Below are positions 20,085-61,157 of a DNA stretch of 64,000 nucleotides, piece by piece. The stretch is from an uncultured delta proteobacterium. Lineage in GTDB: Bacteria; Desulfobacterota; Desulfobacteria; Desulfobacterales; B30-G6. The stretch's first letter is position 1. Each line of letters starts with the position of its first letter. The stretch spans positions 4,382-68,381 of the forward strand of contig CAWGLD010000004.1 of NCBI GenBank assembly GCA_963823335.1. The letters are read 5' to 3'. The notes under the pieces are model-generated. The model had not been told where the DNA came from and made no database searches. It saw only the letters and a program-made list of their open reading frames with translations. Position numbers and translations under genes: made by a program.

Positions 20085-20095
20085 TTACTCGTTTT

Positions 20096-22267: not shown

Positions 22268-22795
22268 CTATTTGTAGTATCTCTCTTTCTCACTATATAT
22301 ACACCCGCAGTAAGACTGTCGATACATCTTGAGCGCTTTTGAAGTTTCAATACCTTCTTTCCAGCCGGTCCGGAAGTCCTGATAGTAAAACGGTATGCCC
22401 ATGGCTTTGCCCACGGATTCACCGATGGATTTGATCTCCTCGTGTTTCTGGTATTTACTGTACAACAGGCTGCTGGTAAAATAGTCGAATTTGCCGTGTA
22501 TTGCCATACGGGCCGTGGAACTGAGGCGATCATGGTAGCAGTAGGTACAGCGGTCTTTCTCCCTAAAGGCAACATTTCGAAGAAATTTTTCCATCTCGTA
22601 TCCTTCCGAATAGATAACACGCAGCCCAATGGAATCCGCGTATGTCTCAAGGGTCTTTCTTCGTTTCAAACACTCCGTATAGGGATGGATATTGTGGCCG
22701 TAAAAATATCCCATCACGTCAAAATCTGCCTGTTGTAACAGCCCGATGGGGACAATGGCACAGGGTGCGCAGCAGGTGTGCAATAATATTTTCAT
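22268..22795 (-). CDS. queH: Epoxyqueuosine reductase QueH (DUF208)
   Basis: LLHTCCAPC at the N-terminus and YCGCIYS near the C-terminus. Confidence 0.85.
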   Translation of the reverse strand: MKILLHTCCAPCAIVPIGLLQQADFDVMGYFYGHNIHPYTECLKRRKTLETYADSIGLRVIYSEGYEMEKFLRNVAFREKDRCTYCYHDRLSSTARMAIHGKFDYFTSSLLYSKYQKHEEIKSIGESVGKAMGIPFYYQDFRTGWKEGIETSKALKMYRQSYCGCIYSEKERYYK

Positions 22796-23475
22796 GCGCG
22801 TTCTCCAAAAATGGCTGTCCCGATACGAACAAAGGTGGCACCTTCCTGAATGGCCACCTCAAAATCGCCGGTCATTCCCATGGAAAGCTCGTCCATTGCA
22901 ACACCTGGGATCTTCATGGCACGAAGTTGATCCCCTAGTTGTCTCAAGGTCTTGAAATAGGGTCGCGCCTTTTCCGGAGCGTTAAAATAGGGCGGCATGG
23001 TCATGAGGCCCTTGACTTGAAGATGGGGTAGTTGACTCATCTCGGTCACGAGCCGGGCCGTGTCCTCCAAGAGAACACCGGACTTGCTGGTTTCTTCTGC
23101 GATGTTGACCTGAACCAGCACGTTCTGTATTTTGCCGATCTTCCCGGCCTGTTTGTCTATTTCTATTGAAAGTTTCAGGGAATCGACGGAATGGATCAGA
23201 TCGAATATTTTTACCACGTATCTGGCTTTGTTTGACTGAAGGTGCCCGATAAAATGCCAGGAAAGAGGATGCGCATAGAGGGCATTGAATTTATCCCGGG
23301 CTTCTTGAACATAGCTTTCACCCAACACAGTTAGGCCCAGTTCGATGGCTGTCAGAAGCCTTTCAACGGGTACGGTTTTAGTCACGGCAACCAGTTGGAC
23401 ATCCTCGGGCCGTCGCCCGGAATCTGCAGCTGCTGTCGCGATTCTACGCCTTACCATTGATAATCGGTCTTTCAA
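22792..23475 (-). CDS. yggS: YggS-family PLP-binding protein
   Basis: LVAVTKT (PLP Lys), HFIGHLQSNK, LSMGMTGDFEVAI. ATGA overlap with queH. Confidence 0.9.
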   Translation of the reverse strand: MKDRLSMVRRRIATAAADSGRRPEDVQLVAVTKTVPVERLLTAIELGLTVLGESYVQEARDKFNALYAHPLSWHFIGHLQSNKARYVVKIFDLIHSVDSLKLSIEIDKQAGKIGKIQNVLVQVNIAEETSKSGVLLEDTARLVTEMSQLPHLQVKGLMTMPPYFNAPEKARPYFKTLRQLGDQLRAMKIPGVAMDELSMGMTGDFEVAIQEGATFVRIGTAIFGERA

Positions 23476-24068
23476 TATATCTCCCTTTCTATGATGCCGT
23501 TTTTCAAAAGATGCTCAAGCACCTCACAGACCGGCAGCCCAACGACATTGGTATACGACCCGCAAATCCGCTTGACCAGAAACGAACCCAGCCCCTGAAT
23601 GGCATATGCGCCGGCTTTGTCATAGGGCTCTTGGGTCTGAATGTACCATTCGATGTCCGCTTGACTGAGATTCCTGAAATGAACATCTGTTTTTTCAACA
23701 CCGGAGATACAGGTTTGCGTGGCTTCACAAAAAATGGCATACCCGCTAAAAACTTCATGGATCTGTCCATTCAATTGCTGAATCATCCGCCGGGCTGTTT
23801 CAATGGAATCCGGTTTACCTAGAATCTCGCCCTGAATGAGAACAATGGTGTCGGCACCGATGACCCAGCTTTCAGGGTAAGCAGCGGCAACGTCCCTGGC
23901 CTTGGCCTCCGCCAGAGTCTTAACAAGCTTTTCAGGTGTCCTGATATCGATACCGTTCTCATCCACGCAACTTGGAATGACCGCAAAAGTGAGACCCGCC
24001 TGCTCCAGAAGATCTTTGCGCCTGGGAGATTTGGATGCCAGAATGAGAGGAGGGGATTTCGTTTTCAT
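23472..24068 (-). CDS. maf: Maf-like nucleoside-triphosphate pyrophosphatase
   Basis: LILASKSPRRKDLL, GADTIV, AGAYAIQG. An internal ATG at 24068 is preferred over the track start at 24101. Confidence 0.9.
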   Translation of the reverse strand: MKTKSPPLILASKSPRRKDLLEQAGLTFAVIPSCVDENGIDIRTPEKLVKTLAEAKARDVAAAYPESWVIGADTIVLIQGEILGKPDSIETARRMIQQLNGQIHEVFSGYAIFCEATQTCISGVEKTDVHFRNLSQADIEWYIQTQEPYDKAGAYAIQGLGSFLVKRICGSYTNVVGLPVCEVLEHLLKNGIIEREIY

Positions 24069-24298
24069 ATGGGTTGATGCCCTTGATCCCAAAAACGACA
24101 ACGTCGCGTCATATAAATTTATAAAACAAATTTATTATCAGATGCTCTTCCGCTTAGCAAGCATCGATACATGGTTCTGGCCGGCAATACAAACCGGTAT
24201 AAAAATCTGATTGACTTTGTGCTGACCTTCAGAAAACCCAAACATCTTGGCTTGACAATGGTTTCGTTAATCGATACATCTCAATCCATCCAAAATAC

Positions 24299-46081: not shown

Positions 46082-46594
46082 TCAGCGTTTGGTCTCATGT
46101 TGCTGAATTATATGCTGTATTTTTTCTTCAACATAGGCGCTAAGATCCGCAATGGTTTCAGAGGATATGTACCCTATATCCCGGGCCAGGCTTTCCACTT
46201 TTTCTTCATCGATGCCTGTGACCTTGTTGACCAGAAAAGCGTCAACTTCTCCTTCTTCCAGGCATTTTCCACAGGCCCCTACAGCACCGATAAAATTATC
46301 CTCCACAAAAACCGGCACCACAATCTTGACAATACCGGCATCGCACTCCTCAACAACCGTCTGCCGGCTGTTGCGAGCCATGACAGCCAGGTTCATGTGC
46401 GCCACTGCACAAATAAAGCTTTGGCCCTTGTCAGTCGCTTTGATCTCCGGACACAAGCGGTTCACCCAGGATTTATAAGGTGTAATCCGAATGCCTTCCG
46501 TGTTGAAGACATTGGTATCCAGCCCATATCGTTCATGAATCTCTTTCTCCAAATTCATCCATTCTTCCACCGACAAAAGATCATTCAATTCCAT
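46082..46594 (-). CDS. Stand-alone PocR-type sensory domain protein
   Basis: 170 aa. The pattern ...LCPEIKATDKGQSFICAVAH...ECDAGIVKIVVPVFVEDNFIGAVGACG matches the recalled PocR ligand-binding domain layout. 14-nt overlap with oleD. Confidence 0.65.
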   Translation of the reverse strand: MELNDLLSVEEWMNLEKEIHERYGLDTNVFNTEGIRITPYKSWVNRLCPEIKATDKGQSFICAVAHMNLAVMARNSRQTVVEECDAGIVKIVVPVFVEDNFIGAVGACGKCLEEGEVDAFLVNKVTGIDEEKVESLARDIGYISSETIADLSAYVEEKIQHIIQQHETKR

Positions 46595-47645
46595 GTTCCA
46601 TCCAATCCTTTAGTTTCTTCAATCCCTCCGTTAGCGAGACTTCCGGTACATAACCCAGATCCCTTTTAGCGGCCCCGATGTCGAACCAGTGACTTTTGGA
46701 GAGCTCGTTGGCAAGAAAGCGGGTCATTCGGGGTTCAGAAGCGATTCCAAGACTTTTATAAACACATTCCAGAACCCAGCCGATGGCGTACGCCAGACCT
46801 TTGGGAATCGATTTCCTTACCGGAGGCTGACCGGCTGCAGCCAACAGGTGGTTCACCATGTCCCACAGATAAACAGGCTCTCCCTGGCTGATAAAATAGA
46901 TACGGCCTGAAAGCTGCGGGTTTGTCATCAGCTTTTCGGCAGCCAGGATATGGGCCTGGGCCGCATTATCGATATAGGTTGTGTCGATACGGTTTTTTCC
47001 GTCACCAACCCGCCTGAGAGTCTTGGCCTGTTTGATAATTCTAGGCACAAACTGGGTGTCTCCCGGTCCCCATATCAAATGGGGTCGCAGTATGATTGCC
47101 CGCACGACATCTTTCTCACATGCCTGGACAACAAGCTGTTCAGCCTTGGCTTTTGTTTTCTGGTAGGAGGTCTGATAGCGACCGGGGTAGGGGGCCGACT
47201 CATCCACACCCATCACGTCGGCATCCCCGTCATAAACCACACTGGGCGAACTGGTATGAATCAGATAGCCAATCTCTTGCCGTTCGCAGGCTTCTACAAT
47301 GTGGTGGGTACCAACGACATTGGTCTCATGATATCCTTGATAGGGACCCCACATCCCGCCGGTTTTGGCCGCCACATGAAACACAAGATCCCTTTCCTGA
47401 CAAGCCCGTTCCACGGCGACCGGATCACTGATATCTCCCTGAATCTGTTCTATTCTGAGTAGATCGAGTTCCGGATATAGCTTGCGGCTCATGGATCTGA
47501 CATTTGGCGTATATCCCAAAAGGCGTTTGACAATCGCTTTTCCAAGAAACCCACCGCCGCCCGTCACAAGTACCCGTGCGTCTTTAAGAGGGGTGATCCC
47601 TGCACTTGTTCCATCGGTTTTCACCGCACTCTGGCCTCCGCCCAA
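46581..47645 (-). CDS. oleD: OleD, NAD(P)-dependent 3-beta-HSD/extended-SDR reductase of the olefin pathway
   Basis: VLVTGGGGFLG, YQKTK (YxxxK). Last gene of a FabH-like / hydrolase / AMP-ligase / SDR series. Confidence 0.85.
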   Translation of the reverse strand: MGGGQSAVKTDGTSAGITPLKDARVLVTGGGGFLGKAIVKRLLGYTPNVRSMSRKLYPELDLLRIEQIQGDISDPVAVERACQERDLVFHVAAKTGGMWGPYQGYHETNVVGTHHIVEACERQEIGYLIHTSSPSVVYDGDADVMGVDESAPYPGRYQTSYQKTKAKAEQLVVQACEKDVVRAIILRPHLIWGPGDTQFVPRIIKQAKTLRRVGDGKNRIDTTYIDNAAQAHILAAEKLMTNPQLSGRIYFISQGEPVYLWDMVNHLLAAAGQPPVRKSIPKGLAYAIGWVLECVYKSLGIASEPRMTRFLANELSKSHWFDIGAAKRDLGYVPEVSLTEGLKKLKDWMEHGIE

Positions 47646-49285
47646 ACTGTCAGCTTCTCACGAAATATCTTTGAATTGTGCCGTATATCCACTGGAAATG
47701 CCTTGTGAAACAAGAAGGTGTCGATTTCCTGGGTAAGGACAGACTCTTTGGCGAGTTCCAACAGCTCTTCGATTATCTTGCGCTTGTTTTTCTTCTGACG
47801 GTTTTTTTCCAGTTCAATGCATATAACCGGTTTTTGGTTAGGGCGCGGCCTCACCCCCACCAGGGCACTTCTGAAAACCTGGGGATGACGATTGAATATC
47901 GCCTCACAGGGAATGGTAAACAGGGTCTGGGTCTTTGTTATGATACGGTGGCTTTTTCTTCCGCAAAACCAGAGTCGTTTTTCCCTATCGATCCACCCAA
48001 GATCTCCCATGCGGTGCCACAGACTGGTGCTCTCTTCTATTTTGGAAAGCAAGTCATCCCGTTTTCTTTCAAAATACTGGTGGGTTACCAGATCACCTTT
48101 GACCGTAATCTCGCCGATTTCACCGTCCGGAACAACCAGATCATTGGACCATTGGGGAATCATGTCGTCACTTATGCGGATGATACGTACCTTCAATCCC
48201 GGCAAAACCCGACCGACGCAGATTCCATAACCCTGTTCGCTCAACTGGCGTGTCTTTTCCAGGATCTCATGGCTCCCCATGACCGATACCGGCATGGCTT
48301 CGGTGGCCCCGTATCCGGGAAAAATTTCGGTTTCCGGTTCCAGAAGGTGACTGAAACGCTCAAGGTTGTCGGGTAATGCCGGCGCACCAGCCGAAATCAC
48401 CCTTTTCAGTGATGGAAGCTTGATGTTCAGAGCCTGACCGTATCGTCCCACCCGGTTGAGCAGTGCCGGAGACGCAAACATATTTGTCACACCATGATTC
48501 AGAATCAGCTCGATAATACGTTCAGGGTTCACCTGTGCCGGTTTGGTGGGATCCATGTCCGGTATCACGGCAGTCATACCGAGCGCTGGATCGAACAGTG
48601 CAAACAGCGGAAATGTCGGCAAATCGATTTCACCGGGCGCAATCTCAAATCGCTCCCTGATATGTCGTACCTGGGCATCGAAGATGCCGTGGGTATAGAC
48701 AACACCCTTTGCCGGTCCTGTACTGCCGGTGGTAAAGAGAATTGCCGCTGTTTCGTCCTTGTGGGTTTTTGCCATTGGAAATGGTTTCCAGGGTGTTCTG
48801 CGAATATCTGAAAGCCTGGGGCCGCCCCAAAACCATCGCTTACCGACCGTTATGGACATATTCAATGATTTAAAATAACTGGGCGTGCACATACGCAATG
48901 CATGGGCCAGGGGTATACCGATAAAAGCGGTTGCTTTGCTCTCTGACAGACAGTTGAGCATTCTCTTGATTCCCATTCCCGGATCCACCACCACGGGTAC
49001 CGCGCCGGTCTTAAAAAGAGCAAACGTCAGGGCAAAGAATTCAAGACCCGGTTTTAGCATCAGAATAGTCCGGGTACCCTGTTTGATACCATGTCGAATG
49101 AGGCCGTGTGCCAGGCAATCGGACTCCCTGTCCAACTGTCGGAAGGTGAGATGAGCGTAGGCGATTCCCCTGTCCCGGTTCTGCGGCAACGGGCAAACCA
49201 CAGCCCGGGTGTAGGGTTGCTTGCGTGCCATTTCCCGAAGCAGGGAGGCCACATTCACCATTCTATCTTCTGGTATTTCATTCAT
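47621..49285 (-). CDS. oleC: OleC, AMP-dependent synthetase family (beta-lactone synthetase)
   Basis: AMP-binding motifs FTTGSTGPAKGV and GYGATE. 25-nt overlap with oleD. Confidence 0.85.
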   Translation of the reverse strand: MNEIPEDRMVNVASLLREMARKQPYTRAVVCPLPQNRDRGIAYAHLTFRQLDRESDCLAHGLIRHGIKQGTRTILMLKPGLEFFALTFALFKTGAVPVVVDPGMGIKRMLNCLSESKATAFIGIPLAHALRMCTPSYFKSLNMSITVGKRWFWGGPRLSDIRRTPWKPFPMAKTHKDETAAILFTTGSTGPAKGVVYTHGIFDAQVRHIRERFEIAPGEIDLPTFPLFALFDPALGMTAVIPDMDPTKPAQVNPERIIELILNHGVTNMFASPALLNRVGRYGQALNIKLPSLKRVISAGAPALPDNLERFSHLLEPETEIFPGYGATEAMPVSVMGSHEILEKTRQLSEQGYGICVGRVLPGLKVRIIRISDDMIPQWSNDLVVPDGEIGEITVKGDLVTHQYFERKRDDLLSKIEESTSLWHRMGDLGWIDREKRLWFCGRKSHRIITKTQTLFTIPCEAIFNRHPQVFRSALVGVRPRPNQKPVICIELEKNRQKKNKRKIIEELLELAKESVLTQEIDTFLFHKAFPVDIRHNSKIFREKLTVWAEARVR

Positions 49286-49531: not shown

Positions 49532-50452
49532 TCAATCTCTTAAACTGTCTTCTAACATGAAGTTACGGATGCGGTCAATGACTGTCTCTGCGGCATCCTC
49601 CAGGATATAATGACCGGCATCCGCAAAGGTATGCACACGGGCGTCGGGAAACCGATGACGCCACTCATGGAGATATGCCTTCGTAAAAACAAAATCCTTC
49701 ATGCCCCAGCAGATAAGCATGGGCAAATTTCTCAGACGGTGCAATTCGTTCTGTACCGCTTTCACCGTTTTAAAACTTGGATCGCCTGGTTTGATAGGGA
49801 TGTCTTCCACAAACTTGAGGGTTGCAATCCGGTTCTGCCAGCAGTTGTATGGCGCCAGTAGCCCCGATCTCACATCACCGGGCAGACCCTTGGTCGTTGC
49901 CATGAAAAGGGCGCTGCGTGCAAAAGCGTTGAATCCTAAAACCGCCAGTTTTGCAAAGGGCTTGACATGGCGGATCAATCGCAGCCTGAAGGGCAGGGAA
50001 CGGCCCTGGGGGGGGAAGAACGCTGCGGTGTTGAGCAGGATAATTTTATCTATGCGCTCCAAATGCCTGAGAGCATAAGCGATACCGATCATACCGCCCC
50101 AATCGTGGAGTACTAAGGTTATTTTCTCTTTTATTTCCAAGTGATGGATGAAGCTTTCCAGATCGTCGACCCGGCAGTCAAGCGTATAACCATAGTGCTC
50201 CAGGCCTGGTTTCTCTGATAACCCACAGCCGATATGATCCACTGCGATCGCCCTGAAGTCCGGAGAGAGATCCTGAATGAGTCTGCGGTAATAAAACGAC
50301 CAGGTCGGGTTGCCATGCACCATGATGACCGGCGGTCCTGCCCCTTGGTCCACATAGTGATACTTGAACCCATTCACGTCCATAAAACGGGATTCGAATG
50401 GATACAGGTGCCGGCATTTCGATAAATCAATGGGCTTTGGTTTTATTTTCAT
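49532..50452 (-). CDS. oleB: OleB, alpha/beta hydrolase (haloalkane-dehalogenase-like; beta-lactone decarboxylase)
   Basis: HGNPTWSFYYR, LHDWGG. C-terminal catalytic His context GHYILED. Confidence 0.85.
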   Translation of the reverse strand: MKIKPKPIDLSKCRHLYPFESRFMDVNGFKYHYVDQGAGPPVIMVHGNPTWSFYYRRLIQDLSPDFRAIAVDHIGCGLSEKPGLEHYGYTLDCRVDDLESFIHHLEIKEKITLVLHDWGGMIGIAYALRHLERIDKIILLNTAAFFPPQGRSLPFRLRLIRHVKPFAKLAVLGFNAFARSALFMATTKGLPGDVRSGLLAPYNCWQNRIATLKFVEDIPIKPGDPSFKTVKAVQNELHRLRNLPMLICWGMKDFVFTKAYLHEWRHRFPDARVHTFADAGHYILEDAAETVIDRIRNFMLEDSLRD

Positions 50453-50495: not shown

Positions 50496-51536
50496 TCACC
50501 ACTTTATTCCCAGCATCAAACAATTCAACCCGCTACCGATACCCAGCATCCCCACCAGATCACCTGCCTTGAAAAAATCACGCTCGGCGGCGATGGCGGC
50601 TGTAATGGGCAGGGATACGGTCCCGATATTGCCCAGGTACTGAAAGGTTGCAAAATCGCGTTGTCTGGGAATACCGATGGCTCTCAGGATCGTGTCCTGG
50701 TGGGTCGAACCGACCTGGTGGCAGACAGTTCTGTCTGGTTGTTCTGCGGTAAGTGAGAGCGTCTGGCGAAATTCCCGGTATGTCTCTATACCCAGTGCGA
50801 CGCCATGCTTCAAAACCCCCACAGAGTCCGTGTTCATGACCTGTTTTCCCACAGCAGATATCCCGCTGTCAGGTCCCCAGGTGCAGAGATTGTGGTGTTC
50901 GGTGGCGCATCGACAGGCCCCCCCCAGGAGTCGGTGATCTTGATCAGACAGGGACGCATCCGTCAGGAGTACGGCAACAGCCCCTGACCCGCCCGTCAGG
51001 GTGGCGACTGTCTGCTTGAACACATCCATGTTTCCGGCGCTCAGCATTCTTTGGATGGTGCTGTCGACAATCTCACGGGCGGATTCACAGGACACCACAA
51101 GCCCGGCAGATACCTGGCCGAGTTCGATGGCATTGGCCACCTGAACCAAACCATTCAGGATTCCGAGACATGCATTGGAAACATCGTAAACCACTGTGTC
51201 CGGTCCGAGACCCAGACCGTTGGATACAGCACACGCTGTAGCCGGTTCCAGGTTATCGCGACACACACCGCCGTACACCAGCATCTGGATTGATCGGGGG
51301 TCTATGCCAGCCGCGGCAATGGATTTTTCCCCCGCAAGAATCGCTCCCTGTGCCATCCGGAACCCCGGATCCCAGAATCTTCTTTCGCGAATACCCGTGA
51401 GGGACTCCAACTGCCCTTTCTGAAAGTGAAGCACATCGTACAGCGGCGCCAGACGCTTTTCCAGATCCGCTGACGTCACGACATTCGGCGGAAGTTCATA
51501 TCCAAAGGAGGCAATACTGACTTTTGAGTATTTCAT
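50496..51536 (-). CDS. oleA: OleA, FabH-like thiolase performing head-to-head Claisen condensation
   Basis: DVSNACLG (Cys), EPATA, HQVG (His), GNIGTVSLP (Asn). Start moved to ATG 51536 because the track N-terminus (KHQTPNTKHQT...) is a translated GGTGTTT repeat. Confidence 0.85.
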   Translation of the reverse strand: MKYSKVSIASFGYELPPNVVTSADLEKRLAPLYDVLHFQKGQLESLTGIRERRFWDPGFRMAQGAILAGEKSIAAAGIDPRSIQMLVYGGVCRDNLEPATACAVSNGLGLGPDTVVYDVSNACLGILNGLVQVANAIELGQVSAGLVVSCESAREIVDSTIQRMLSAGNMDVFKQTVATLTGGSGAVAVLLTDASLSDQDHRLLGGACRCATEHHNLCTWGPDSGISAVGKQVMNTDSVGVLKHGVALGIETYREFRQTLSLTAEQPDRTVCHQVGSTHQDTILRAIGIPRQRDFATFQYLGNIGTVSLPITAAIAAERDFFKAGDLVGMLGIGSGLNCLMLGIKW

Positions 51537-51596
51537 GTTTTTTGGTGTTTGGTGTTTGGTGTTTTGTGTCTGGTGTTTTGTGTTTGGTGTTTGTTT
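51537..51596. repeat. GGTGTTT/GTGTTTT word array in the spacer between the megasynthase and oleA
   Basis: TTTGGTGTTTGGTGTTTGGTGTTTTGTGTCTGGTGTTTTGTGTTTGGTGTTTG. Followed at 51635-51655 by CAGCATCCCGGCTTCCCGGCC, a near copy of 37418-37438. Confidence 0.8.
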
Positions 51597-51677
51597 TAGG
51601 GCTAAACGCATCAATGATGACATCGAGCTGTAATCAGCATCCCGGCTTCCCGGCCTTATAGCCTCATGGCCTCCCAG

Positions 51678-54600
51678 CTATCTGTCAAGCGGGACCAGCC
51701 CGATGGAAAATTGTTCCATATGATAGATGGGCAGCCCGTCGACTGTCAACAGGCCATCGGCGGTGAGCACGGGAAATGGCTCTTCCACCACGTTTGTCAC
51801 CAGGGCAAGAAGCTCGATATGCCTGTTTTCTGGTGTGATTTGTCCACGATAGGTCCATCGATGACGGATATCCGATTTCAAGGTAAAGCAGTGATCGTCC
51901 CCCAGATGCGGCCATCGATCCAGGGCCATGAATTTCAGCACTTGTATCAGAGACTCCAGACCCAGCGACCCCGGGCAGACCGGATCACCCAGAAAATGAG
52001 CCTTGAAAAACCATTCCTTGGGCAGAACTTTTTTGGAGGCCCGGATGATACCGTATCCATGGGGTCCGCCTTCCGGGAAATAGGCCTCGATGTTATCGAT
52101 CATGCGTATGGCCCGTCCCGGCAACACCGCATTTTCATGGACATGACCGGATAAATCGTCCGGTGCCGTGGGTGTATGATCCACCATCGCTGTCTGCCTG
52201 TTGGTCACCGAATCCTCAGGCAGGGTATAGCGAGACATATCGATCTGATGCAATCCTACCTGCGCTGCGAGAGCTTCCTGGGTAAAAAAACCGAAATGTG
52301 TCTGCCCCTGATAAATCTTCTGCCCGGATTGTAATATCTGGAAATCAAAGTGCTCGATAATCATGTCACCGGCTTCAGACACCTGGGTCAGACGCGCTCG
52401 CGTGGTCAGGGGTCCTTTTTTTGCAGGCACATCCCTGCATAGTTCAGCAATACCACCCAGATTTCTGAATCTGAGATCTTTTTCACTTTGTAAGGCCGAA
52501 CCCAGGTATGCCGCCAGCCAGCCGCAGGGCTGAAGCGCAATTTCATTCAAAACGCAAAATGGCATAACAGGTGTACGGTTGGCCCTGAAAAACCAGTCAC
52601 CCGGGTCGATATCCACCTCGGACTCGATCCAATCACCGGGTTTTAATACCCAGGGCTCCGGTGCAACGTCAACCACCCGGTCCATGAAAAGATAGGGCGG
52701 TCTGGGCAACCTGGCAATGAAGCGCTGTTTGTCAAATACCTGATAGGGTTTTCCAAATGCTATAGAGGGTCTGCCGAACGAGAATTCCTCCAGCAGTTTC
52801 CGACTGAATGTTCTTGTACCGTTCTCTTTTTTTTCGGAAGGGTAGCGTTTTTCTGTGGTGATCTGCTGTGGGCCGATTTTCCAAATGCGTTCGATCTCTT
52901 CACGCGTGCCCTGGGTCAGTTTCATGGAAATACTGTCAAAATAAACAATGTACGACCCATCGGCGGTCATGTGGGCATCGGCAATCGCATATGGCTCCGG
53001 GTCATAGCCCATCTCTTTGATGTCGATTTCATATACAACATGTCGGGTGTTCGGTGTTACCGGTCCACGGCATTTCAGCACACTTTCAACCCCCACAACC
53101 GGTTCATAGCAGGCGCTTTCATTTTCACTGATCCATCCGATACGTTGCAGAAATATCCGCAATGTGTGTGCACAGCATTCGTACATGAGCGTGCCCGGCA
53201 TGACCATGTCATCGACGAAATGACAGGTCAGGTACCAATCGTCCGGATGAATATCCGCTTCGGCACGTATCAAGCCCTTACCAAAGGTCCCTCCATAGGG
53301 GTCGAATGTGAGAACACGATCGATGAGGTGCATGCGCCCGCCCGGCAGCCACAGAGAAGAAGCGATGCTTTTACCCTGAAACGCAGTACCAAATGCGTCC
53401 CCGAGTCGGCCTGACCTCAGGGCATCCAGGGCGGCCTCGGAAAATGTTTCAATTGTTACCGGGGCCGGATGCCGCCACTCAGCACCAAAATCTTCTTGCC
53501 TGCGAGTTCCATCCATCTTTTTAGCGACAATACCCCCGGAATTCCGCACCTCCTCCTCGGTAAAGAAGCCTGCACAGCCGTTTTTCATCTGAATGAACAG
53601 GTTGTCTTCGATAAACCCTTTGAATTTAAAGAAGAAAAGGTGCGTGTCTCCCTGACGGATAAATTTTTCGATCTCGATGTCGTAGCGAATCGTCTCGCCC
53701 GGCTGTGGCAGTCCCCTGAAAAACGTCACACAGGCATCCAGCAACCGATAGGTTCTGCGGCCCTTGACCACATGATCGATCCCCAGATACGAACTGAGGA
53801 ACAAATCTGCCTGACCAGCCTCCACCGAGATACAGGCAGGCGCGCGGTTACCATCCAGATACCAGGCCTCTGGAAGAACATCGTGTTCGGTCACAATCCG
53901 GCCAGTGCCCAGAGAACACTTTTCACCCACAAGGGAAACAACCCGATCCACGAGCATGAGGGGTTCGTCCGGAAGCCGCACCCGGGCCTGGTAGGTGTCG
54001 ACCACCTGGAATTCAGGACCGAATACCTCGGCCACAGATCCTGTAGCAAAAGTCAGACAGTCTTTCCTGGAATAAAGCGGGGTAACCCCTGATGAGGTCT
54101 GGTGCGTCCCGGGGCCTTTGGCAATGACCCCGGTTTTACGGATCTGCTTCATATGACCGGACAGGAGCTGGGCCTGCAGTGCCATGGCCTCCTGGTAGCC
54201 CTTTGTCATCTGGCTGGAAAATTCCAGGAACTGCTTGTGTGTTTCGGTGGTTGTCTGGGCATTTTCCTGAACAGACCGCATGAGGTCCCGGACTATCTGG
54301 CTGGAGACACTTTCGTGCAGCGGCCCTGAAATGGAATCCCTCCCCAACGGACGCTCGTTGGGTTCATGGATTTTCGATTTTTCCCCAGCTGAAATGCGTG
54401 AATCAATATGGCCCGGCAGTAAAGGTGGCGGCCCGGGGAAGGGCAGGGGAGCACCGACACGCAGATGGATTTGACGCGATGATTCTTTTTTGGATCCGGT
54501 TGCCGGTCCTGACAATGTATCATCATATACCTGATTCATTTCAGGAGGATACGAAAGACCTCCATATAATTTGTCGAGATGGACACCCACTTTTGCTGCG

Positions 54601-57600
54601 CTGAGCGCGCCCAACAGCTTCAATATTGAAAGGTATTCGTTGTCTTGGCTTGAACTGACAGCCAAAGCAAGATGGGGGCGACCTTCGAGCGTCTGCCCTA
54701 TCATTCGTGTGCAGGATGCCCGGGGTCCCATTTCGACAAAAACACGGATACCATCGTCATAGGCCTGTTCAATGGTGCGGGTAAAGTCGAACCCGTTGCG
54801 TGCCTGATCCAGTATGGATGCAGCAGCGTTTTCACTGGTCAGGTCATATGTATGGCCCCATGCACAACTGTAAAAACGCATAGTTGCGGATATGTCAGTG
54901 GGGTACAGATGAAGTTGGCGGTAAGCCTCCTCCACAGGTCTGAGCGCATCACAGTGAACCGTCACGACACCGTCAAGGGGAACGGCGTTACACCCCAGCA
55001 TTTTGACGACCTTCCAGATTGATTCTTTCTCGCCGCCTAACACCGATTCCCTGGGTGAATTAATGATCAGCAGACGGGTCATGGGAAATTGTTTAACAAC
55101 AGACATGACCTCGTCTGCCGCCCGATCAACCGCAACCACCTGCCATTCAAATCGTTTTTCAGGTTCGATGTTCCACGCCTTCCGGAGGGATAGACAGGGC
55201 CCGGTCAAGTCTGTCTTGAACAATGGTGATTCGAGCATCCGTTTCAAAAGCCGGTCTTGACCTTTCCAGACACCCATGGCAACCAAGCCAGCGGTTTCCC
55301 CGAGGCTGTACCCGATGACCGCCCTGGGTGGCGCCATGAACTGCTGCATCAGTCTGGCCGTGACAACCCCGTGCATTACCTGCCCGAAAATCGCCAACAG
55401 CGGATCGGCATGGATCCGATGCAAGGCCTGTATTTCCCATTGGTTTTCCCAGGACATCCGATAAGGCACAAAGCATTCGGGAATCATTTGCCTTTTCAAT
55501 TGCCCGGTTTCTGCATCCACCTGACCTATAAGCAATGGCCATTGGACCCCCATGTCCCGTCCCATACCAAGATAATGGTTTCCGGAGCCAGGAAAAACAA
55601 AGGCAATGCCGGCCGACTCCCCCAGGGGCTCGGGTGTGTAAAAGATGTTTGCATGCCCCGGAGAAGCGTCTGTCTTCCCTGAAGAAACGAGCTGTTTGGC
55701 TCTAAGAATCATGTTTTCGGCATCGTGAATATCTTTGACCACCAGGCTGAGCGCTCTTTTCTTACCCGGGGGTCTAGGTCTCTTATTTTCGTACCAGACC
55801 CGCGCGAGCCACTCCAGGGGTACGTCCATGGAATCCCATTTCCGGATCTGTTTCCAAAGGGTTTCCAGACCATCTAAAATCTCCTGGTCATGATCGCCTT
55901 CCACGACAAAAAGACCGCTGGACTGGTATCCCAGAGGGCGAAGTTTTTCCTGAACGAATCCAGGGGGCGATACCATCCCGGGGTCTTCATACCCTTCCAG
56001 AAGGACATGCATGCAGTTTCCATCGGACGTCATGGCACCCACACAGGCCCGGCGAGGATTGGTTTCCCGATCCCGATACCAGTACTGAGGTTTGATGGGA
56101 ACATGAAAACGTTCTTCCCATGCGATATCTCCGGGCCGTCGATAATCCGGCATGGGTGGTAAAAGGGCATGGTAAAGACACAGGCTTGTTTTCACAAGGG
56201 AAGACAAGCCTGATGCGGCACCCATGTGTCCCACAATCGCTTTGGTGCTGCTGACGGCGCAATGCAAGCCCTTTTCGGTCAAAACGGTATTCAATACCTT
56301 TGATTCCACGACATCTTCGGTAGGAATACCGCTTCCGTGTGCCTCATAGAGGCTGATATCCGACGACCCCACACGAGCATCCTGAATGGCACGCTCCAGG
56401 GAAACTTGGTATGCTTCCTGTGTTACGCCCCCACCTTCCGTCGCCATCCCACTGGCAGCGCCGAAGCCATTGACAATCGCATAAATACGATCTTTTTCCG
56501 CAATGGCGTCTTCCAGGCGTTTGAGCACCAGTGCCAGGCCGCCTTCTCCGGGAAGCGTCCCCTTAGCAGATGAATCAAAGGGCAATACAGGCGCTGTCTC
56601 GGAACAGGGTCGGGTCTGATGGTGTGTGGCCAGATATCTGATATCTCCGGTAAAATCCACAGCACCCACCAGCATCATGTCTGTGTCATTGTCCTGCAAG
56701 GCCCGGACACCTATTTCGAGGGCTTTGATACCGGAAGCTTCTTCGCAGGAGACAACAAAACTGGGCCCACCCAACAGAAATTCCTTGGCAATCCGGCTTG
56801 CAATGACACTGGTCAATGCACCCAGAGTCCGGTTGGATGTCAACGGTCGGCTTATAGAAGCTTTCAGGGAACGGACCCACTGGGCGGCATGGGGGTCCTG
56901 AAGGTTCAAGCCATATTTTTTTTCCCATCGGCGGATGCTTTCATTCACGATCCATCTTAAATGAAAATTGGTGGCCTCAAAGTCAAAATCCGCTCCCACC
57001 ATCACGCCCATGCGTGTCCGTTTCTCCCTGAGGGCAACACCGGCATCGATGAGAGCGTTTCGACAGAGCTTCATCATGAGCAGATGCTGCGGCAGAATAT
57101 CCGGTATTTCATTGGGGGGAACGTGAAACAGACCCATATCCAGGGCAACATCTTCCATGAACGCACCGTGTTCCGGAACCACCTGCCGGAAATAGGTATC
57201 CGGTCCGATTTGTGTGCCCCGAAGACGAGAGTGATGTTCGATGATGGATTGCCCCTTGAAAACAGCCTCCTGAAAAGCCCTCAGGGTCGACAGTTTCCCC
57301 ATGGCAGCGCTCATTCCGATAATCGCCACCAGGGGTTTTTCACTTGTCGATGTTTTAGAATAACCGTCTTCATCACCGTTCCCGGGGACAGCGTGATGTT
57401 GCAGATTTATGGTACCTCCAGCTCGCCTATTGGGACGGGTCCATTCTTCCAGAAGCATGTGGGCATTGATACCGCCGAATCCAAATGCGCTCACAGCGGC
57501 ACGACGGGGGGTGTCGGCATCTCGTAGACCCCAGTCGGTCACTTCGGTCTGGACCCTAAAAGGACTGTCGATCAAAGGACTGTTATCTGTCGGCTCCGAA

Positions 57601-58817
57601 TAGTTGTTTGATGGCGGTATGTTTTTATGTTTTAATGCAAGTAATACTTTAAGTGTTCCGGCTGCCCCGGCACCTGTTAGCAGATGCCCGATAGTAGCTT
57701 TGACCGAGCCGATGGGACAGACACCGGCATGGGTTGCAATGCCCTGCCACAGGGTTGCGAGACTGCTCAGTTCGGTATGATCCCCAAGGGGTGTGCCTGC
57801 CCCGTGGCATTCAATCAGGTCGACCTGATCCGGTGTCCACCCGGTGGTGTCATAGGCCATGCGCATGGCCCTTACCTGGCCTTCGCTCTTGGGCGCCAGG
57901 AGACTACCCCCCATATCGTTGGAAAGCCCGATGCTTTTGATGACCGCCAGTATATTGTCCTGGTCCCTTACAGCATCCTTCACCCGTTTCAGCACAAACA
58001 TGCCGGCACCTTCCCCGACAACCAAACCATCCGCAGATTTGTCAAAAGGTGCGCAACGACCCGACGGTGACAACGCGCGAAGCTGGGAGAACCCAACCTG
58101 CGTGTAAAGGCAGTCAGGCCGGGAGACCCCCCCCACCAACATGGCATCTGCCCTGTGTTGTGCCAGGGCATCGCAGGCAAGTTTGAATGCCACCAGCGAT
58201 GATGCACAGGCCGCATCCAGGGTATATGTACCGTTTCCGAGACCAAGGCCTTTGGCCAGCAACGCTGCTGGAAAACCGGTCATTTTGCCGGCCAGGCACT
58301 GGTTTCTGGTCAAAACCGACGCAATATCCCGGATCATGGGATCAAATAATCGTTTTTCGAGATAAGCCCCCAGAATTTTCTCCGCAACCAAAGAGGAAGC
58401 CTGCGTAGGAAGGGCGATGGCGGCCAGAATCACACCGGTTCGTTTCCGGTCGATGAATTCATGCCTGGCAGTGTAAAAAGCCTCTCTACCTGCGTGCAGC
58501 ACGATTCGGTGAAGTGGGTCAAGATCACGAACCAGGTCCTGGTCAAGATCCATATTGTCAAAACAGTAGTCGATATCCCGGTTCAGAAGGCAGGCTATCC
58601 TGGATATGGCTTTGTCGGGCCGCAGTTTATCTGCGGTCATCACAGCAGGGCCAACCCGCCAACGATCTTTTCCAACCACCTGGCAGGCATCTCTTTTATG
58701 AAGCAGATTATCCCAGAAGACATCCAGGGTGGTCGCGCCGGGTAAGAGTCCGGCCATACTGACAATGGCGATATTGTATGGCCGGGATGTTTGCATATAT
58801 TTGGTATCTTTCTGCAT
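51678..58817 (-). CDS. PUFA-synthase-type megasynthase, PfaC/Pfa3-like: KS - CLF(KS-like, Cys replaced) - AT - 2x FabA-like DH; no ACP, KR or ER recognised
   Basis: KS motifs DAACASS, ECHGAGT, KATIGHLLTGAG. Second KS-like domain has VSCEEASG at the active-site position. AT has GYSLGE. DH motifs are HFVDDMVMPGTLMYE and HFLGDPVCPGSLGLE. 2379 aa. Confidence 0.85.
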   Translation of the reverse strand: MQKDTKYMQTSRPYNIAIVSMAGLLPGATTLDVFWDNLLHKRDACQVVGKDRWRVGPAVMTADKLRPDKAISRIACLLNRDIDYCFDNMDLDQDLVRDLDPLHRIVLHAGREAFYTARHEFIDRKRTGVILAAIALPTQASSLVAEKILGAYLEKRLFDPMIRDIASVLTRNQCLAGKMTGFPAALLAKGLGLGNGTYTLDAACASSLVAFKLACDALAQHRADAMLVGGVSRPDCLYTQVGFSQLRALSPSGRCAPFDKSADGLVVGEGAGMFVLKRVKDAVRDQDNILAVIKSIGLSNDMGGSLLAPKSEGQVRAMRMAYDTTGWTPDQVDLIECHGAGTPLGDHTELSSLATLWQGIATHAGVCPIGSVKATIGHLLTGAGAAGTLKVLLALKHKNIPPSNNYSEPTDNSPLIDSPFRVQTEVTDWGLRDADTPRRAAVSAFGFGGINAHMLLEEWTRPNRRAGGTINLQHHAVPGNGDEDGYSKTSTSEKPLVAIIGMSAAMGKLSTLRAFQEAVFKGQSIIEHHSRLRGTQIGPDTYFRQVVPEHGAFMEDVALDMGLFHVPPNEIPDILPQHLLMMKLCRNALIDAGVALREKRTRMGVMVGADFDFEATNFHLRWIVNESIRRWEKKYGLNLQDPHAAQWVRSLKASISRPLTSNRTLGALTSVIASRIAKEFLLGGPSFVVSCEEASGIKALEIGVRALQDNDTDMMLVGAVDFTGDIRYLATHHQTRPCSETAPVLPFDSSAKGTLPGEGGLALVLKRLEDAIAEKDRIYAIVNGFGAASGMATEGGGVTQEAYQVSLERAIQDARVGSSDISLYEAHGSGIPTEDVVESKVLNTVLTEKGLHCAVSSTKAIVGHMGAASGLSSLVKTSLCLYHALLPPMPDYRRPGDIAWEERFHVPIKPQYWYRDRETNPRRACVGAMTSDGNCMHVLLEGYEDPGMVSPPGFVQEKLRPLGYQSSGLFVVEGDHDQEILDGLETLWKQIRKWDSMDVPLEWLARVWYENKRPRPPGKKRALSLVVKDIHDAENMILRAKQLVSSGKTDASPGHANIFYTPEPLGESAGIAFVFPGSGNHYLGMGRDMGVQWPLLIGQVDAETGQLKRQMIPECFVPYRMSWENQWEIQALHRIHADPLLAIFGQVMHGVVTARLMQQFMAPPRAVIGYSLGETAGLVAMGVWKGQDRLLKRMLESPLFKTDLTGPCLSLRKAWNIEPEKRFEWQVVAVDRAADEVMSVVKQFPMTRLLIINSPRESVLGGEKESIWKVVKMLGCNAVPLDGVVTVHCDALRPVEEAYRQLHLYPTDISATMRFYSCAWGHTYDLTSENAAASILDQARNGFDFTRTIEQAYDDGIRVFVEMGPRASCTRMIGQTLEGRPHLALAVSSSQDNEYLSILKLLGALSAAKVGVHLDKLYGGLSYPPEMNQVYDDTLSGPATGSKKESSRQIHLRVGAPLPFPGPPPLLPGHIDSRISAGEKSKIHEPNERPLGRDSISGPLHESVSSQIVRDLMRSVQENAQTTTETHKQFLEFSSQMTKGYQEAMALQAQLLSGHMKQIRKTGVIAKGPGTHQTSSGVTPLYSRKDCLTFATGSVAEVFGPEFQVVDTYQARVRLPDEPLMLVDRVVSLVGEKCSLGTGRIVTEHDVLPEAWYLDGNRAPACISVEAGQADLFLSSYLGIDHVVKGRRTYRLLDACVTFFRGLPQPGETIRYDIEIEKFIRQGDTHLFFFKFKGFIEDNLFIQMKNGCAGFFTEEEVRNSGGIVAKKMDGTRRQEDFGAEWRHPAPVTIETFSEAALDALRSGRLGDAFGTAFQGKSIASSLWLPGGRMHLIDRVLTFDPYGGTFGKGLIRAEADIHPDDWYLTCHFVDDMVMPGTLMYECCAHTLRIFLQRIGWISENESACYEPVVGVESVLKCRGPVTPNTRHVVYEIDIKEMGYDPEPYAIADAHMTADGSYIVYFDSISMKLTQGTREEIERIWKIGPQQITTEKRYPSEKKENGTRTFSRKLLEEFSFGRPSIAFGKPYQVFDKQRFIARLPRPPYLFMDRVVDVAPEPWVLKPGDWIESEVDIDPGDWFFRANRTPVMPFCVLNEIALQPCGWLAAYLGSALQSEKDLRFRNLGGIAELCRDVPAKKGPLTTRARLTQVSEAGDMIIEHFDFQILQSGQKIYQGQTHFGFFTQEALAAQVGLHQIDMSRYTLPEDSVTNRQTAMVDHTPTAPDDLSGHVHENAVLPGRAIRMIDNIEAYFPEGGPHGYGIIRASKKVLPKEWFFKAHFLGDPVCPGSLGLESLIQVLKFMALDRWPHLGDDHCFTLKSDIRHRWTYRGQITPENRHIELLALVTNVVEEPFPVLTADGLLTVDGLPIYHMEQFSIGLVPLDR

Positions 58818-59047: not shown

Positions 59048-59329
59048 ATGATGAGAACACAGAAATGGATCACGATTTTTATGCTGATAACCCTGGTCAT
59101 GCTTACGGGCAGTTATGCACTGGCCGAGGAACAGGGAAAAATCAACATCAATACAGCCACGGTGGAAGAACTGGTACAACTGGAGCGTGTCGGTCCCAGA
59201 TACGCAGAAAAAATAGTTGCCTTTCGTCAGGAGAACGGTCCCTTTAAGGCGCCTGAGGAGATCATGCTGGTAGCGGGCATCGGTGAGAAGACCTTCGAAA
59301 TCAATAAAGACCGGATCGTCATTAAATAA
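59048..59329 (+). CDS. ComEA-like helix-hairpin-helix DNA-binding protein with signal peptide
   Basis: ININTATVEELVQLERVGPRYAEKIVAFRQENGPF...LVAGIGEKTFE. AGGAGGA RBS. Confidence 0.85.
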   Translation: MMRTQKWITIFMLITLVMLTGSYALAEEQGKININTATVEELVQLERVGPRYAEKIVAFRQENGPFKAPEEIMLVAGIGEKTFEINKDRIVIK

Positions 59330-59477
59330 TAATGCCTGGACTGTAGACAACTGATAGTGTGCGACCCCGCGGGCTCCCGTCCTATCATCTCAAAGGAGTC
59401 ATTTCATTCGATCAAGGCAATGCGTTAGCCTTTCCCGCTATTTCATCCCGCGGGGTCAGCCGTTCAGGTCAGGAACA

Positions 59478-59600
59478 CCGAATCGAGCGATTGTCGAGGT
59501 TGCCGTTCGGCAAGGCAGCTGCGGGTTCCGCGAATGTAAACTAGCGGGATCGTACGGACGCTGCAGACTGCGGTACGTCAGCAGTCCCAGCGGGTTGCAG
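59478..59600 (+). repeat. Diverged repeat X (partner Y at 40226-40350) within the long leader of the 4HB-ERCC4 operon
   Basis: Contains the perfect 22-mer GAGCGATTGTCGAGGTTGCCGT (59485-59506), followed by hairpins with substitutions relative to Y. Confidence 0.7.
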
Positions 59601-59695
59601 ATTTTGAATTAAATGAATCAAATCCTTTGAAAGATGGGTTGCCGAACCCCAAGGAAGATCTGAACCGCCATTTAGGTAAAAGAAAGGAGAGAGCC

Positions 59696-60106
59696 ATGGA
59701 CTACGCCTACCAACGACTGGACATCTGGAAAAAGGCGGTCGATCTTTCCATCAAGGTCATTCAATGTATCGCCGAAGTGGCCAATGAGGTTGAAACACAG
59801 CGCCTTACCGAGGAAATCGAAATGAGTGCCGTCAATATTGCCACAAACATCGCCAAGGGAAAAGCCTGTTTGTCGGAGGAGGATTTCATTTATTATCTGT
59901 TTTTGTCAAAAAGATCACTGTATGAAACCATGACACTGCTGGAAATTCTCAAAGCCAAACAGTTGATTACCGACGAGTGCTACATGGAAATCGAAACAAA
60001 AGGAAAAAACATCACTGGAATGCTGATTGAATTTATCCGCTCAGTCAAAGAAACCGGCAGCCCCTATCAGGCAGAAAACTACCAGGCTGCTTACAGAAAC
60101 CGATAG
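59696..60106 (+). CDS. Four-helix-bundle protein (divergent 23S-IVS-protein/Avd-like), copy a
   Basis: RLDIWKKAVDLSIKV...SAVNIATNIAKGK...FLSKRSLYETMTLLEIL. AAGGAGAG RBS before ATG 59696 (the track start at 59627 is less likely). Confidence 0.8.
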   Translation: MDYAYQRLDIWKKAVDLSIKVIQCIAEVANEVETQRLTEEIEMSAVNIATNIAKGKACLSEEDFIYYLFLSKRSLYETMTLLEILKAKQLITDECYMEIETKGKNITGMLIEFIRSVKETGSPYQAENYQAAYRNR

Positions 60107-60121
60107 AACAAAAGGAGATAA

Positions 60122-60514
60122 ATGATGACCTATATCTATGAAAAGCTCGACGTCTGGCAAAAAGCCATGCAGTTTGCCGGGGATGTCATTGATTCCATGT
60201 CGATGATGAACAGCAAAGACTACCATCAAGAGATTTTAGAGAAAACAGAAGGGAGTGCAGCCGGTATCGCCGGCGCCATTGCCATGGGAAAATCCTACAG
60301 TTCAAAACACGATTTCGCCAGACATCTGTATCATTCCAGGGGCGCCTTGTACGAAACCATGACTCTGTTGGAGTTGTTGAAACGTAAACGCCTCGTTGCC
60401 GAAGATAAATTTGCTGATTTCGACACCAGGGCAAACCAACTGACCGCCATGCTGACCGCCCTGATTAAATCGATTTACACACCCAAATCGGACAATGGCA
60501 AACAATCATCATAA
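60122..60514 (+). CDS. Four-helix-bundle protein, copy b (paralogue of copy a)
   Basis: KLDVWQKAMQFAGDV...GAIAMGKSYSSKHDFARHLYHSRGALYETMTLLELL. AAGGAGA RBS. Confidence 0.8.
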   Translation: MMTYIYEKLDVWQKAMQFAGDVIDSMSMMNSKDYHQEILEKTEGSAAGIAGAIAMGKSYSSKHDFARHLYHSRGALYETMTLLELLKRKRLVAEDKFADFDTRANQLTAMLTALIKSIYTPKSDNGKQSS

Positions 60515-61157
60515 GCGTCAACCTCCTGAGATGAGGCTGATAATTTCAGTCGATTACAGAGAAAGGCCTTCCGGACTTCCCGATCTTCTGGTTGATGCAG
60601 GATTTGAGGTGGCTATAGTCAAGCTCCCTTATTGTGACTACATAATTAACCATGGAATATCCATCGAAAGAAAAACCGGCAGGGATTTCGCTATCTCAAT
60701 CATCGACGGCAGACTATTTAAACAGGCCAGTTGGATGCGAAAGCGAACCAATCGGCCTGTTTTTCTCCTGGAAGGAAGTCCGTTTCATGTCGATGTGGAC
60801 ATACATAAGAAGGCGATTAAGGGCGCAATGCTTTCTATACAAGTCGCATGGAGCATCCCCATCATTTATTCTCGATCTATGGAGGAAACATGCAATATTT
60901 TCAGAACACTGGCAACCCAGCAGGAAAACCAGACCGAACGCCTGGAACTCAGGCACGGTTTTCGATCCAAACGGATGATCTCAAAACGGTTGTATCTTCT
61001 ACAAGGGCTTCCAAATATTGGTCCGGTTATGGCTCTGAGATTGATCAGACATTTTAAAACAGTCCACCGTGTTATGAACGCCAGTATCGATGAATTAACG
61101 GAAGTGGATGGCATTGGGGAAGATACTGCTGATAAGATCCAGGAAATTCTCCGGTAA
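60495..61157 (+). CDS. ERCC4-domain (XPF/Mus81/Hef-type) nuclease with C-terminal (HhH)2
   Basis: VDYRE...CDYII...ISIERKTGRDFAISIIDGRLFKQ...PVFLLEG. The HhH segment is LQGLPNIGPVMALRL...EVDGIGEDTADKI. Overlaps 4HB-b by 20 nt (alternative ATG at 60531). Confidence 0.9.
   Translation: MANNHHKRQPPEMRLIISVDYRERPSGLPDLLVDAGFEVAIVKLPYCDYIINHGISIERKTGRDFAISIIDGRLFKQASWMRKRTNRPVFLLEGSPFHVDVDIHKKAIKGAMLSIQVAWSIPIIYSRSMEETCNIFRTLATQQENQTERLELRHGFRSKRMISKRLYLLQGLPNIGPVMALRLIRHFKTVHRVMNASIDELTEVDGIGEDTADKIQEILR

Follow-up and report, generated by a model that had tools for sequence, protein, structure and literature searches.

The 7.1-kb gene at positions 51678..58817 (minus strand) of a 64,000-nucleotide stretch of contig CAWGLD010000004.1, from an uncultured member of the Desulfobacterales (the whole stretch is the window below), very likely encodes PfaBC, a subunit of a 'Type I' Pfa-like polyunsaturated fatty acid (PUFA)/polyketide-type synthase that supplies polyunsaturated acyl chains to the co-transcribed olefin pathway OleABCD. 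The open reading frame (ORF) and its translation, together with Pfam and NCBIfam searches, give a fused PfaB/PfaC-type subunit of 2379 residues, encoded by the first gene of its operon. Its domains are, in order, a ketosynthase (KS), a chain-length factor (CLF), an acyltransferase (AT), a linker and two dehydratase (DH) units (KS-CLF-AT-linker-DH-DH). The KS has a Cys-His-His triad, the CLF lacks the Cys, the fused AT is of the PfaB family, both DH units are FabA-type, and no acyl carrier protein (ACP), ketoreductase (KR) or enoyl reductase (ER) domain is present, as in a Type I PfaBC. A Type I pfaBC placed with an ole operon is a known layout. Shulse and Allen defined the Type I cluster by the pfaBC fusion and noted its frequent linkage to ole (PMC3098273), and Geobacter bemidjiensis, which makes the polyene hydrocarbon C31:9, carries a tandem array of pfaD, A, B, C, oleA-D and pfaE (PMC4882568). 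The locus described here adds a minor variation, which is that pfaD, pfaA and pfaE are dispersed in the order Desulfobacterales.

Domain organization of PfaBC

The elements that a first-pass annotation had read by eye from the translation (an active KS, a KS-like domain with Glu in place of the catalytic Cys, an AT with the motif GYSLGE, a long Pro/Gly-rich linker and two FabA-type dehydratase/isomerase domains) are all recovered by alignment and profile search. The active KS (57417..58772, minus strand; residues 16-467; PF00109 and PF02801) contains the motifs DAACASS (Cys204), ECHGAGT (His338) and GHLLTGAG (His378), and its Cys-His-His triad is intact. A second PF00109 and PF02801 stretch forms the CLF-like KS domain (55983..57326, minus strand; residues 498-945). 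In a pairwise alignment of the two KS-like domains, Glu693 in the motif VSCEEASG is aligned with Cys204, and His827 and His864 are retained. Judged from sequence, Glu at the Cys position with both His residues kept is the signature of a CLF. The best solved relative is the structure 6RIW (deposited as 'ORF10'; E-value: 3e-110), which matches query residues 15-881 and so covers the KS and CLF. We take 6RIW to be the PfaC KS-CLF didomain structure of Santin et al. 2020. Work on this didomain is credited to Santin et al. 2020 in a later paper (PMC12895367).

The AT domain (54573..55622, minus strand; residues 1066-1415) is assigned to the PfaB type from TIGR02816 and an alignment to Escherichia coli FabD. 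TIGR02816 (pfaB_fam) is matched over profile positions 162-524 of 534 with an E-value of 2.5e-25; the score of 89 bits is below the cut-off of 144 bits, which was set for whole PfaB proteins. PF00698 (Acyl_transf_1) scores 24 bits, under its cut-off. In the alignment, Ser1171 (in the GYSLGE motif) and His1288 are present, and nothing corresponds to Arg117 of FabD, which binds malonyl. The length of this domain is constant, at 350 residues in 12 of 12 homologues. Downstream of the AT is the interdomain linker (54072..54572, minus strand; residues 1416-1582), which has a disordered Pro/Gly/Ser-rich part (Pro, Gly and Ser contribute 15, 16 and 19 of the 167 linker residues) and a long conserved helix at about residues 1506-1561 (DNA 54135-54302). 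The linker is poorly conserved and varies in length (58-127 and 10-48 residues among homologues). An AlphaFold2 model of it, built with 22 homologues (predicted template modelling score [pTM] 0.25), has a predicted local distance difference test score (pLDDT) below 50 at about residues 1436-1505, after which about residues 1506-1561 form a single helix (pLDDT 85-91). As modelled, this helix is not an ACP four-helix bundle.

The C-terminal third contains four PF07977 stretches, which correspond to four hotdog folds in two pairs. FabA-type dehydratase/isomerase pair 1 (52923..54071, minus strand) consists of a pseudo-hotdog at residues 1582-1722 and a catalytic hotdog at 1798-1969 with His1866 and Glu1880; pair 2 (51681..52802, minus strand) consists of a pseudo-hotdog at 2036-2169 and a catalytic hotdog at 2232-2374 with His2274 and Glu2288. 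Alignment to E. coli FabA locates the catalytic His only in the second copy of each pair, within the motifs HFVDDMVMPGT (His1866) and HFLGDPVCPGS (His2274). The first pseudo-hotdog has no His, and the second has Asn at the His position. The two pairs are 28% identical over 369 residues.

The first-pass annotation had also reported that the protein has no phosphopantetheine attachment motif, no KR or ER and no C-terminal 1-acylglycerol-3-phosphate acyltransferase (AGPAT), and Pfam, NCBIfam, PROSITE, purpose-built hidden Markov models (HMMs) and the AlphaFold linker model agree with this. With Pfam, the whole protein matches at E<=1 solely KS, KAsynt_C_assoc, Acyl_transf_1 and FabA families, plus a sub-threshold Thiolase_N on the KS region, and the interdomain stretches scanned singly at E<=10 give no relevant match. 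With NCBIfam, the matches are to the KS part of the PfaA model, to the PfaB family over the AT and to FabA/FabZ models over the C-terminal third, and there is no match to an ACP, KR, ER or acyltransferase-tail model. The PfaA model TIGR02813 is matched by its KS part alone (positions 8-466 of the 2582 in the profile; 459 bits, with the cut-off at 1010), so that the full-length PfaA architecture KS-MAT-ACPn-KR-DH (MAT, malonyltransferase) is not found in this protein. The PROSITE phosphopantetheine pattern PS00012 is absent from all six reading frames of the 64 kb window, and phmmer queries with the ACPs of E. coli (AcpP) and Bacillus subtilis found nothing. HMMs built from 150 PfaA ACP domains, 80 PfaA KR regions and up to 40 PfaD proteins also found nothing in the six-frame window (best E-value: 1.2); positive controls of the ACP and KR models scored 278, 26 and 700 bits, and the PfaD model was run without a control. 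An AGPAT tail has no Pfam or NCBIfam match, and the chain stops 5 residues past the last hotdog fold. A cryptic ACP or KR in the linker, which the annotation had named as the finding that could overturn its view, was sought by Pfam at E<=10, conservation, AlphaFold2 and the HMMs, and none was found. PfaBC has no carrier or reductases because in PUFA-type synthases these are held by the partner proteins PfaA and PfaD, with tandem ACPs and the KR on PfaA and PfaD as the ER (PMC12895367, PMC3098273).

The orthologues in Geobacter and Desulfuromonadales are the same fused KS-CLF-AT-DH-DH protein (39-43% identity), with oleABCD directly after it in the same order. Myxobacterial Pfa3, reportedly described by Gemperlein et al. 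in 2014, is said to be a KS-CLF-AT-DH-DH-AGPAT protein and so to match PfaBC in domain order up to and including the second DH; the protein described here differs from it in having no AGPAT tail. In thraustochytrids, subunits B (KS-CLF-AT-ER) and C (DH-DH-ER) share with PfaBC the KS-CLF-AT and FabA-type DH-DH blocks. The layout of the thraustochytrid PUFA synthase subunits has been described previously (PMC13311796); compared with them, PfaBC is bacterial and ole-linked, has no fused ER and carries both blocks in one chain. PfaBC is also like the sum of gammaproteobacterial PfaC and PfaB (Shewanella, Moritella and Photobacterium), which have a Cys-His-His KS, a Cys-less CLF, two FabA-type DH pairs and a PfaB-family AT but no ACP, KR or ER. 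Gammaproteobacterial PfaC (KS-CLF-DH-DH) and PfaB (KS'-AT) act in trans on the ACPs of PfaA (PMC12895367). In the window, the AT sits between the CLF and the DHs in one chain, whereas in those bacteria it is part of a separate PfaB with a pseudo-KS; a further difference is that pfaBC is linked here to ole. In Shewanella, pfa and ole are presumably unlinked. That the two gene sets can be unlinked in a genome is known (PMC3098273).

The ole genes and a proposed pathway

Four genes encoding OleABCD are clustered directly after pfaBC in the order oleA-oleB-oleC-oleD, which is conserved in related loci. OleA (50496..51623, minus strand; gene start 54 bp 3' of pfaBC) is a thiolase-fold condensing enzyme with ACP_syn_III domains and a score of 474.5 bits against NF006720 (cut-off 285). 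OleB (49532..50452, minus strand) is an alpha/beta hydrolase of the haloalkane-dehalogenase-like group (Abhydrolase_1); all of its NCBIfam matches are under their cut-offs, and its position is conserved in related loci. OleC (47621..49285, minus strand) belongs to the AMP-dependent olefin beta-lactone synthetase family (NF006754, 741 bits; cut-off 478); its scores with the olefin beta-lactone synthetase models, 636 and 624 bits, are under their equivalog cut-offs. OleD (46581..47645, minus strand) belongs to the NAD(P)H-dependent 2-alkyl-3-oxoalkanoate reductase family (3Beta_HSD), and its match to the OleD model NF042422 has an E-value of 1e-114 and 383 bits against a cut-off of 580. The oleD gene overlaps oleC by 25 bp. 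The last gene, which overlaps the end of oleD, encodes a PocR sensory-domain protein of 170 residues (46082..46594, minus strand; PF10114) and is followed by a terminator-like hairpin (45836-45814). Gene spacing is tight or overlapping save for a gap of 246 bp between oleB and oleC, and the six genes form one operon, pfaBC-oleA-oleB-oleC-oleD-pocR. In a promoter scan around this operon, consensus matches were no commoner than in shuffled sequence. The PocR gene is 3' of oleD in 10 related loci (excluding L016, a same-contig duplicate), and its product may sense a small molecule for the pfaBC-ole operon or regulate it.

More than 6700 pfaBC homologues were found, mainly in metagenome-assembled genomes (MAGs) of Desulfobacterales, some of them labelled in their source as 'PfaB family protein' or type I polyketide synthase (PKS). 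A scan of one genome per species gave 80 loci, which together with four that were looked up (L001-L004) made 83 non-redundant loci for analysis by ORF calling, BLAST and Pfam. The ole genes come after pfaBC in 56 of the 64 loci that have at least 5 kb of downstream sequence, with oleA next to pfaBC in most related loci. An Sfp-type phosphopantetheinyl transferase (PPTase) gene comes after oleD in 16 loci. One Desulfobacterales subclade (L023, L024, L025 and L072) has pfaBC followed by oleB, oleC and oleD with no adjoining oleA. In L001, a relative whose PfaBC is 83% identical, oleA is present as two overlapping ORFs (17405-18402), owing to a frameshift or to an error in long-read assembly.

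The proposed model for the pathway is as follows. The growing chain would be attached to tandem ACPs of a PfaA whose gene lies outside the window, with priming by a PfaE-type PPTase. PfaA would contribute malonyl loading, one KS, the KR and a PKS-type DH, and PfaD would reduce selected enoyl intermediates. PfaBC would work in trans on the ACPs of PfaA. Its KS-CLF would carry out part of the condensations, and its two FabA-type DH pairs would dehydrate and isomerize so that double bonds remain in the cis configuration. Off-loading of the finished chain would then fall to the PfaB-type AT, as shown for gammaproteobacterial PfaB. This scheme follows what is known of PUFA synthases, in which the malonyltransferase of PfaA loads the PfaA ACPs on which the chain grows and PfaB serves as the terminal acyltransferase (PMC12895367). 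The tight coupling of pfaBC to oleABCD suggests that the AT hands the polyunsaturated chain to the Ole pathway. There, OleA would condense two acyl chains, OleD would reduce the keto group, OleC would make the beta-lactone and OleB would decarboxylate it. By analogy, the product may be a long polyunsaturated hydrocarbon like the C31:9 of G. bemidjiensis. Compared with the G. bemidjiensis cluster (PMC4882568), the cluster in the window has no pfaD, pfaA or pfaE adjoining pfaBC, ends with the PocR gene and is preceded by unrelated housekeeping genes.

Partner genes in related genomes

A PfaA of 2000-2400 residues (KS-AT-ACP[x2 or more]-KR-DH) is encoded directly upstream of the PfaBC orthologue in 38 of the 83 loci and 2-8 kb upstream in another 7. 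Eighteen of the 83 have no PfaA within at least 9 kb, and in the remaining 20 the contig is too short for a verdict. PfaD (NMO and FabD_helical_ins) precedes PfaA in 35 loci. The earlier conclusion that the enzyme cannot run a full elongation cycle alone and needs a carrier in trans is correct, but with pfaA so often directly upstream this is the standard condition of a PfaC or PfaBC subunit. An adjacent pfaA is the rule in distant relatives (less than 45% identity), which include Geobacter, Desulfuromonadales, Planctomycetota, Gemmatimonadota and gammaproteobacterial MAGs; inside the Desulfobacterales crown the linkage is mixed. Some PfaA homologues (P0243, P0409, P0426 and P0428) are longer, at about 2800 residues, and have an extra FabA-type domain (PF07977), which is another way of sharing domains among subunits. 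P0252, from Desulfatiferula olefinivorans, is similar to these in length (2807 residues). Species of Desulfococcus and Desulfonema also have PfaA.

In Desulfobacterales the cluster pfaD-pfaA-pfaBC-oleABCD is broken up, with pfaD-pfaA at a separate locus. The clearest case is contig_13782 (1,347,425 bp) of a Desulfobacterales MAG, in which pfaBC-oleBCD-PocR lies within 805,792-832,811 and pfaD and a full-length pfaA lie within 493,532-519,933, about 300 kb away. A pepP(M24)-xerD-pfaD-pfaA locus is found in three Desulfobacterales lineages, namely this relative and two other long contigs, with no pfaBC in the 10 kb flanks. In L088, L089 and L090 (about 5000-16700 in each), it consists of a Xaa-Pro peptidase gene (M24), a XerD-type recombinase gene, pfaD, an oppositely oriented ORF of some 200 residues (missing in L090) and pfaA, and no ole gene is present in the flanks. 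In the complete 7.2-Mb genome CP070771, pfaA and pfaBC are 4 kb apart. Upstream of this pfaA is only a 182-residue piece with the PfaD helical insert (L086, 8642-9190), which may be what is left of a decayed pfaD. Three Desulfobacterales loci (L086/L087 of CP070771; L018, 7794-9002; L081, 6186-7472) encode, between pfaA and pfaBC, a FAD-dependent oxidoreductase of about 400 residues that might conceivably stand in for the ER. By analogy with these relatives, the PfaA and PfaD of the window's lineage are very probably encoded elsewhere in its genome.

Several points weigh against the assignment of PfaBC to such a dispersed synthase. The window, which spans 5.2 kb upstream and 51 kb downstream of pfaBC, contains no pfaA, pfaD, PPTase gene (pfaE) or free-standing ACP gene. 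The window's own clade (58-83% identity; L001, L003, L004 and L006) likewise has no pfaA, pfaD or pfaE within 10 kb; on a fifth contig of the clade, L022, the upstream sequence is too short for a verdict. The PfaA of the clade was not traced, in that neither of two PfaA homologue searches gave, among the matches listed, one attributable to the contigs carrying the clade's pfaBC. Some relatives, including Desulfonema magnum (L002, CP061800.1) and Desulfococcaceae HSG9 (L013), have pfaBC without pfaA or ole within 10 kb. Finally, the identity of the product is drawn by analogy from Geobacter and may differ here. The pfaBC gene of D. magnum adjoins a type III CRISPR-Cas locus with a fusion of reverse transcriptase (RT) and Cas1.

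One of the two PfaA searches used the L018 PfaA as query and took the best 120 matches; the other used a profile from 14 orphan PfaA lineages, which ranked homologues generically and did not single out the PfaA of the clade. That the first search missed it is expected, because calibration predicts 46-52% identity to the query, which is below the best 120 matches. The clade is moreover about equidistant (about 50%) from all other lineages, which makes its PfaA elusive. When a PfaA ACP-KR-DH fragment was compared with a library of representatives at 50% identity, more than 20 mutually equidistant Desulfobacterales-like lineages were found. Mirror-tree correlation and amino-acid composition filters did not single out the PfaA of the clade, and a metagenome scan with the candidates P0275 and P0278 gave nothing useful. 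Two other candidates, P0400 and P0273, were rejected on the basis of pfaA GC content (0.60-0.61 vs. 0.51-0.53 in the clade), but their loci show the pepP-xerD-pfaD-pfaA arrangement.

These points could be read to mean that the clade has lost pfaD-pfaA and that PfaBC uses housekeeping AcpP, FabG and FabI/K, making or isomerizing double bonds and extending fatty acid synthase (FAS) intermediates for OleA, and the first-pass annotation had likewise proposed that ACP, KR and ER might be borrowed from FAS. We regard this as improbable. It would account for the absence of pfaA, pfaD and pfaE from the 64 kb and from within 10 kb in the four clade relatives, for the failure of the searches to identify the clade's PfaA while pfaBC is still under purifying selection, and would fit the homology of the FabA-type DH domains to an enzyme working on AcpP-bound substrates. 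It is opposed by the use of PfaA ACPs in all characterized PUFA synthases (PMC12895367), by the presence of pfaD-pfaA elsewhere in relatives with unlinked pfaBC, where checkable, by the conservation of the separate pepP-xerD-pfaD-pfaA locus in three lineages, by the expected invisibility of the clade's PfaA at 46-52% identity, and by a clade branch that is not unusually long in the tree. In that tree (neighbour-joining, no support values), the clade is nested within the Desulfobacterales crown among lineages with near or unlinked pfaA. Borrowing from FAS is unlikely because a relative keeps pfaD-pfaA about 300 kb from pfaBC-ole on one contig, and the proposal is left unsupported. A fuller form of the same idea, in which pfaD, pfaA and pfaE are all lost from the clade and pfaBC-oleABCD is a self-standing module that makes unsaturated olefin precursors with AcpP and the FAS reductases, is marginally less probable again.

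It is also conceivable that pfaBC is left over from a broken pfa cluster and has no role in making a product, with OleABCD using ordinary fatty acyl-CoAs. The visible fragmentation of the pfa cluster in Desulfobacterales, the suggestion that some pfa genes of anaerobes may be remnants (PMC4882568) and the splitting of oleA into two ORFs in the 83% relative would fit this. The condition of the gene does not. Its reading frame is unbroken over 7.1 kb, and all catalytic residues, Cys204, His338 and His378 among them, are invariant in a 12-sequence alignment. Measured against clade relatives at 83, 79 and 70% identity, the ratio of nonsynonymous to synonymous substitution rates (dN/dS) of pfaBC is 0.17-0.19 overall, and it is 0.08-0.20 in each catalytic domain vs. 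0.38-0.54 in the linker. DH pair 1 is the most conserved region of the protein (dN/dS 0.08-0.10). The order pfaBC-oleABCD-pocR is retained down to 58% identity. Because of this purifying selection and the invariant catalytic residues, the product of pfaBC is predicted to be functional in a clade without a nearby pfaA, and we consider a functionless remnant very unlikely.

As the source is a metagenome-assembled contig of 558,816 bp, pfaA might truly adjoin pfaBC and have been lost by misassembly or a contig break, a possibility that the first-pass annotation had itself raised. It has next to no likelihood. Beyond a divergent region of 230 bp, the window runs on upstream of pfaBC, for 5.2 kb in all, into a ComEA-like gene, two 23S-rRNA-intervening-sequence (IVS) protein genes and an ERCC4 nuclease gene. 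The explanation is contradicted because relatives with 83%, 70% and 58% identity, each from a separate sample, keep this upstream order. Its proximal part is seen again in a fourth, shorter contig, which represents the 58% relative in a separate Logan assembly. No adjacent pfaA hidden by misassembly was found.

Gene neighbourhood and significance

The upstream boundary of the operon is marked by the ComEA-like helix-hairpin-helix (HhH) gene (HHH_3; 59048..59329, plus strand), which is divergent from pfaBC. An HHH_3 gene is found at the same site in L001, L003, L004 and L005. It is the first of a plus-strand group at 59048-61157 (ComEA-like HhH, two tandem 23S-rRNA-intervening-sequence proteins, which are four-helix bundles, and an ERCC4/HhH nuclease) that is kept upstream of pfaBC in L001, L003 and L004. 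The overall gene order in these three relatives is ComEA-like/pfaBC-oleABCD-pocR-DHH/CBS. The other window ORFs that were scanned (n=31, at least 100 residues) belong to housekeeping, transport or defence families or have no match.

In CP070771 (L087), pfaBC-oleA is followed directly by Maf, YggS-like, QueH, M48 peptidase, enoyl-CoA hydratase, EamA and AmiC-like genes. The same Maf-to-AmiC-like gene set is present at 13473-24101 of the window, about 22 kb from the ole operon. The part of this separating sequence at 24-34 kb has a low GC content (0.37-0.45) and encodes an AbiEii toxin; a ResIII helicase is encoded just past it, at 35.7-37.1 kb. The low-GC part itself has the appearance of an inserted island.

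With neither a carrier nor reductases, PfaBC could be taken for an incomplete synthase, but it is a single subunit of a PUFA-type synthase made up of several proteins. If the partner genes were truly absent, pfaBC-oleABCD would be a new route coupling type II FAS to hydrocarbon synthesis and a compact module for the engineering of polyunsaturated hydrocarbons. In the preferred reading, the lineage documents the break-up of the known pfaD-pfaA-pfaBC-oleABCD-pfaE cluster, in which pfaBC stays with ole and pfaD-pfaA is found at the pepP-xerD locus. The retention of pfaBC with ole while pfaD-pfaA is separate argues that olefin formation is coupled in function to PfaBC and not to PfaA, and off-loading by the PfaB-type AT is a plausible link.

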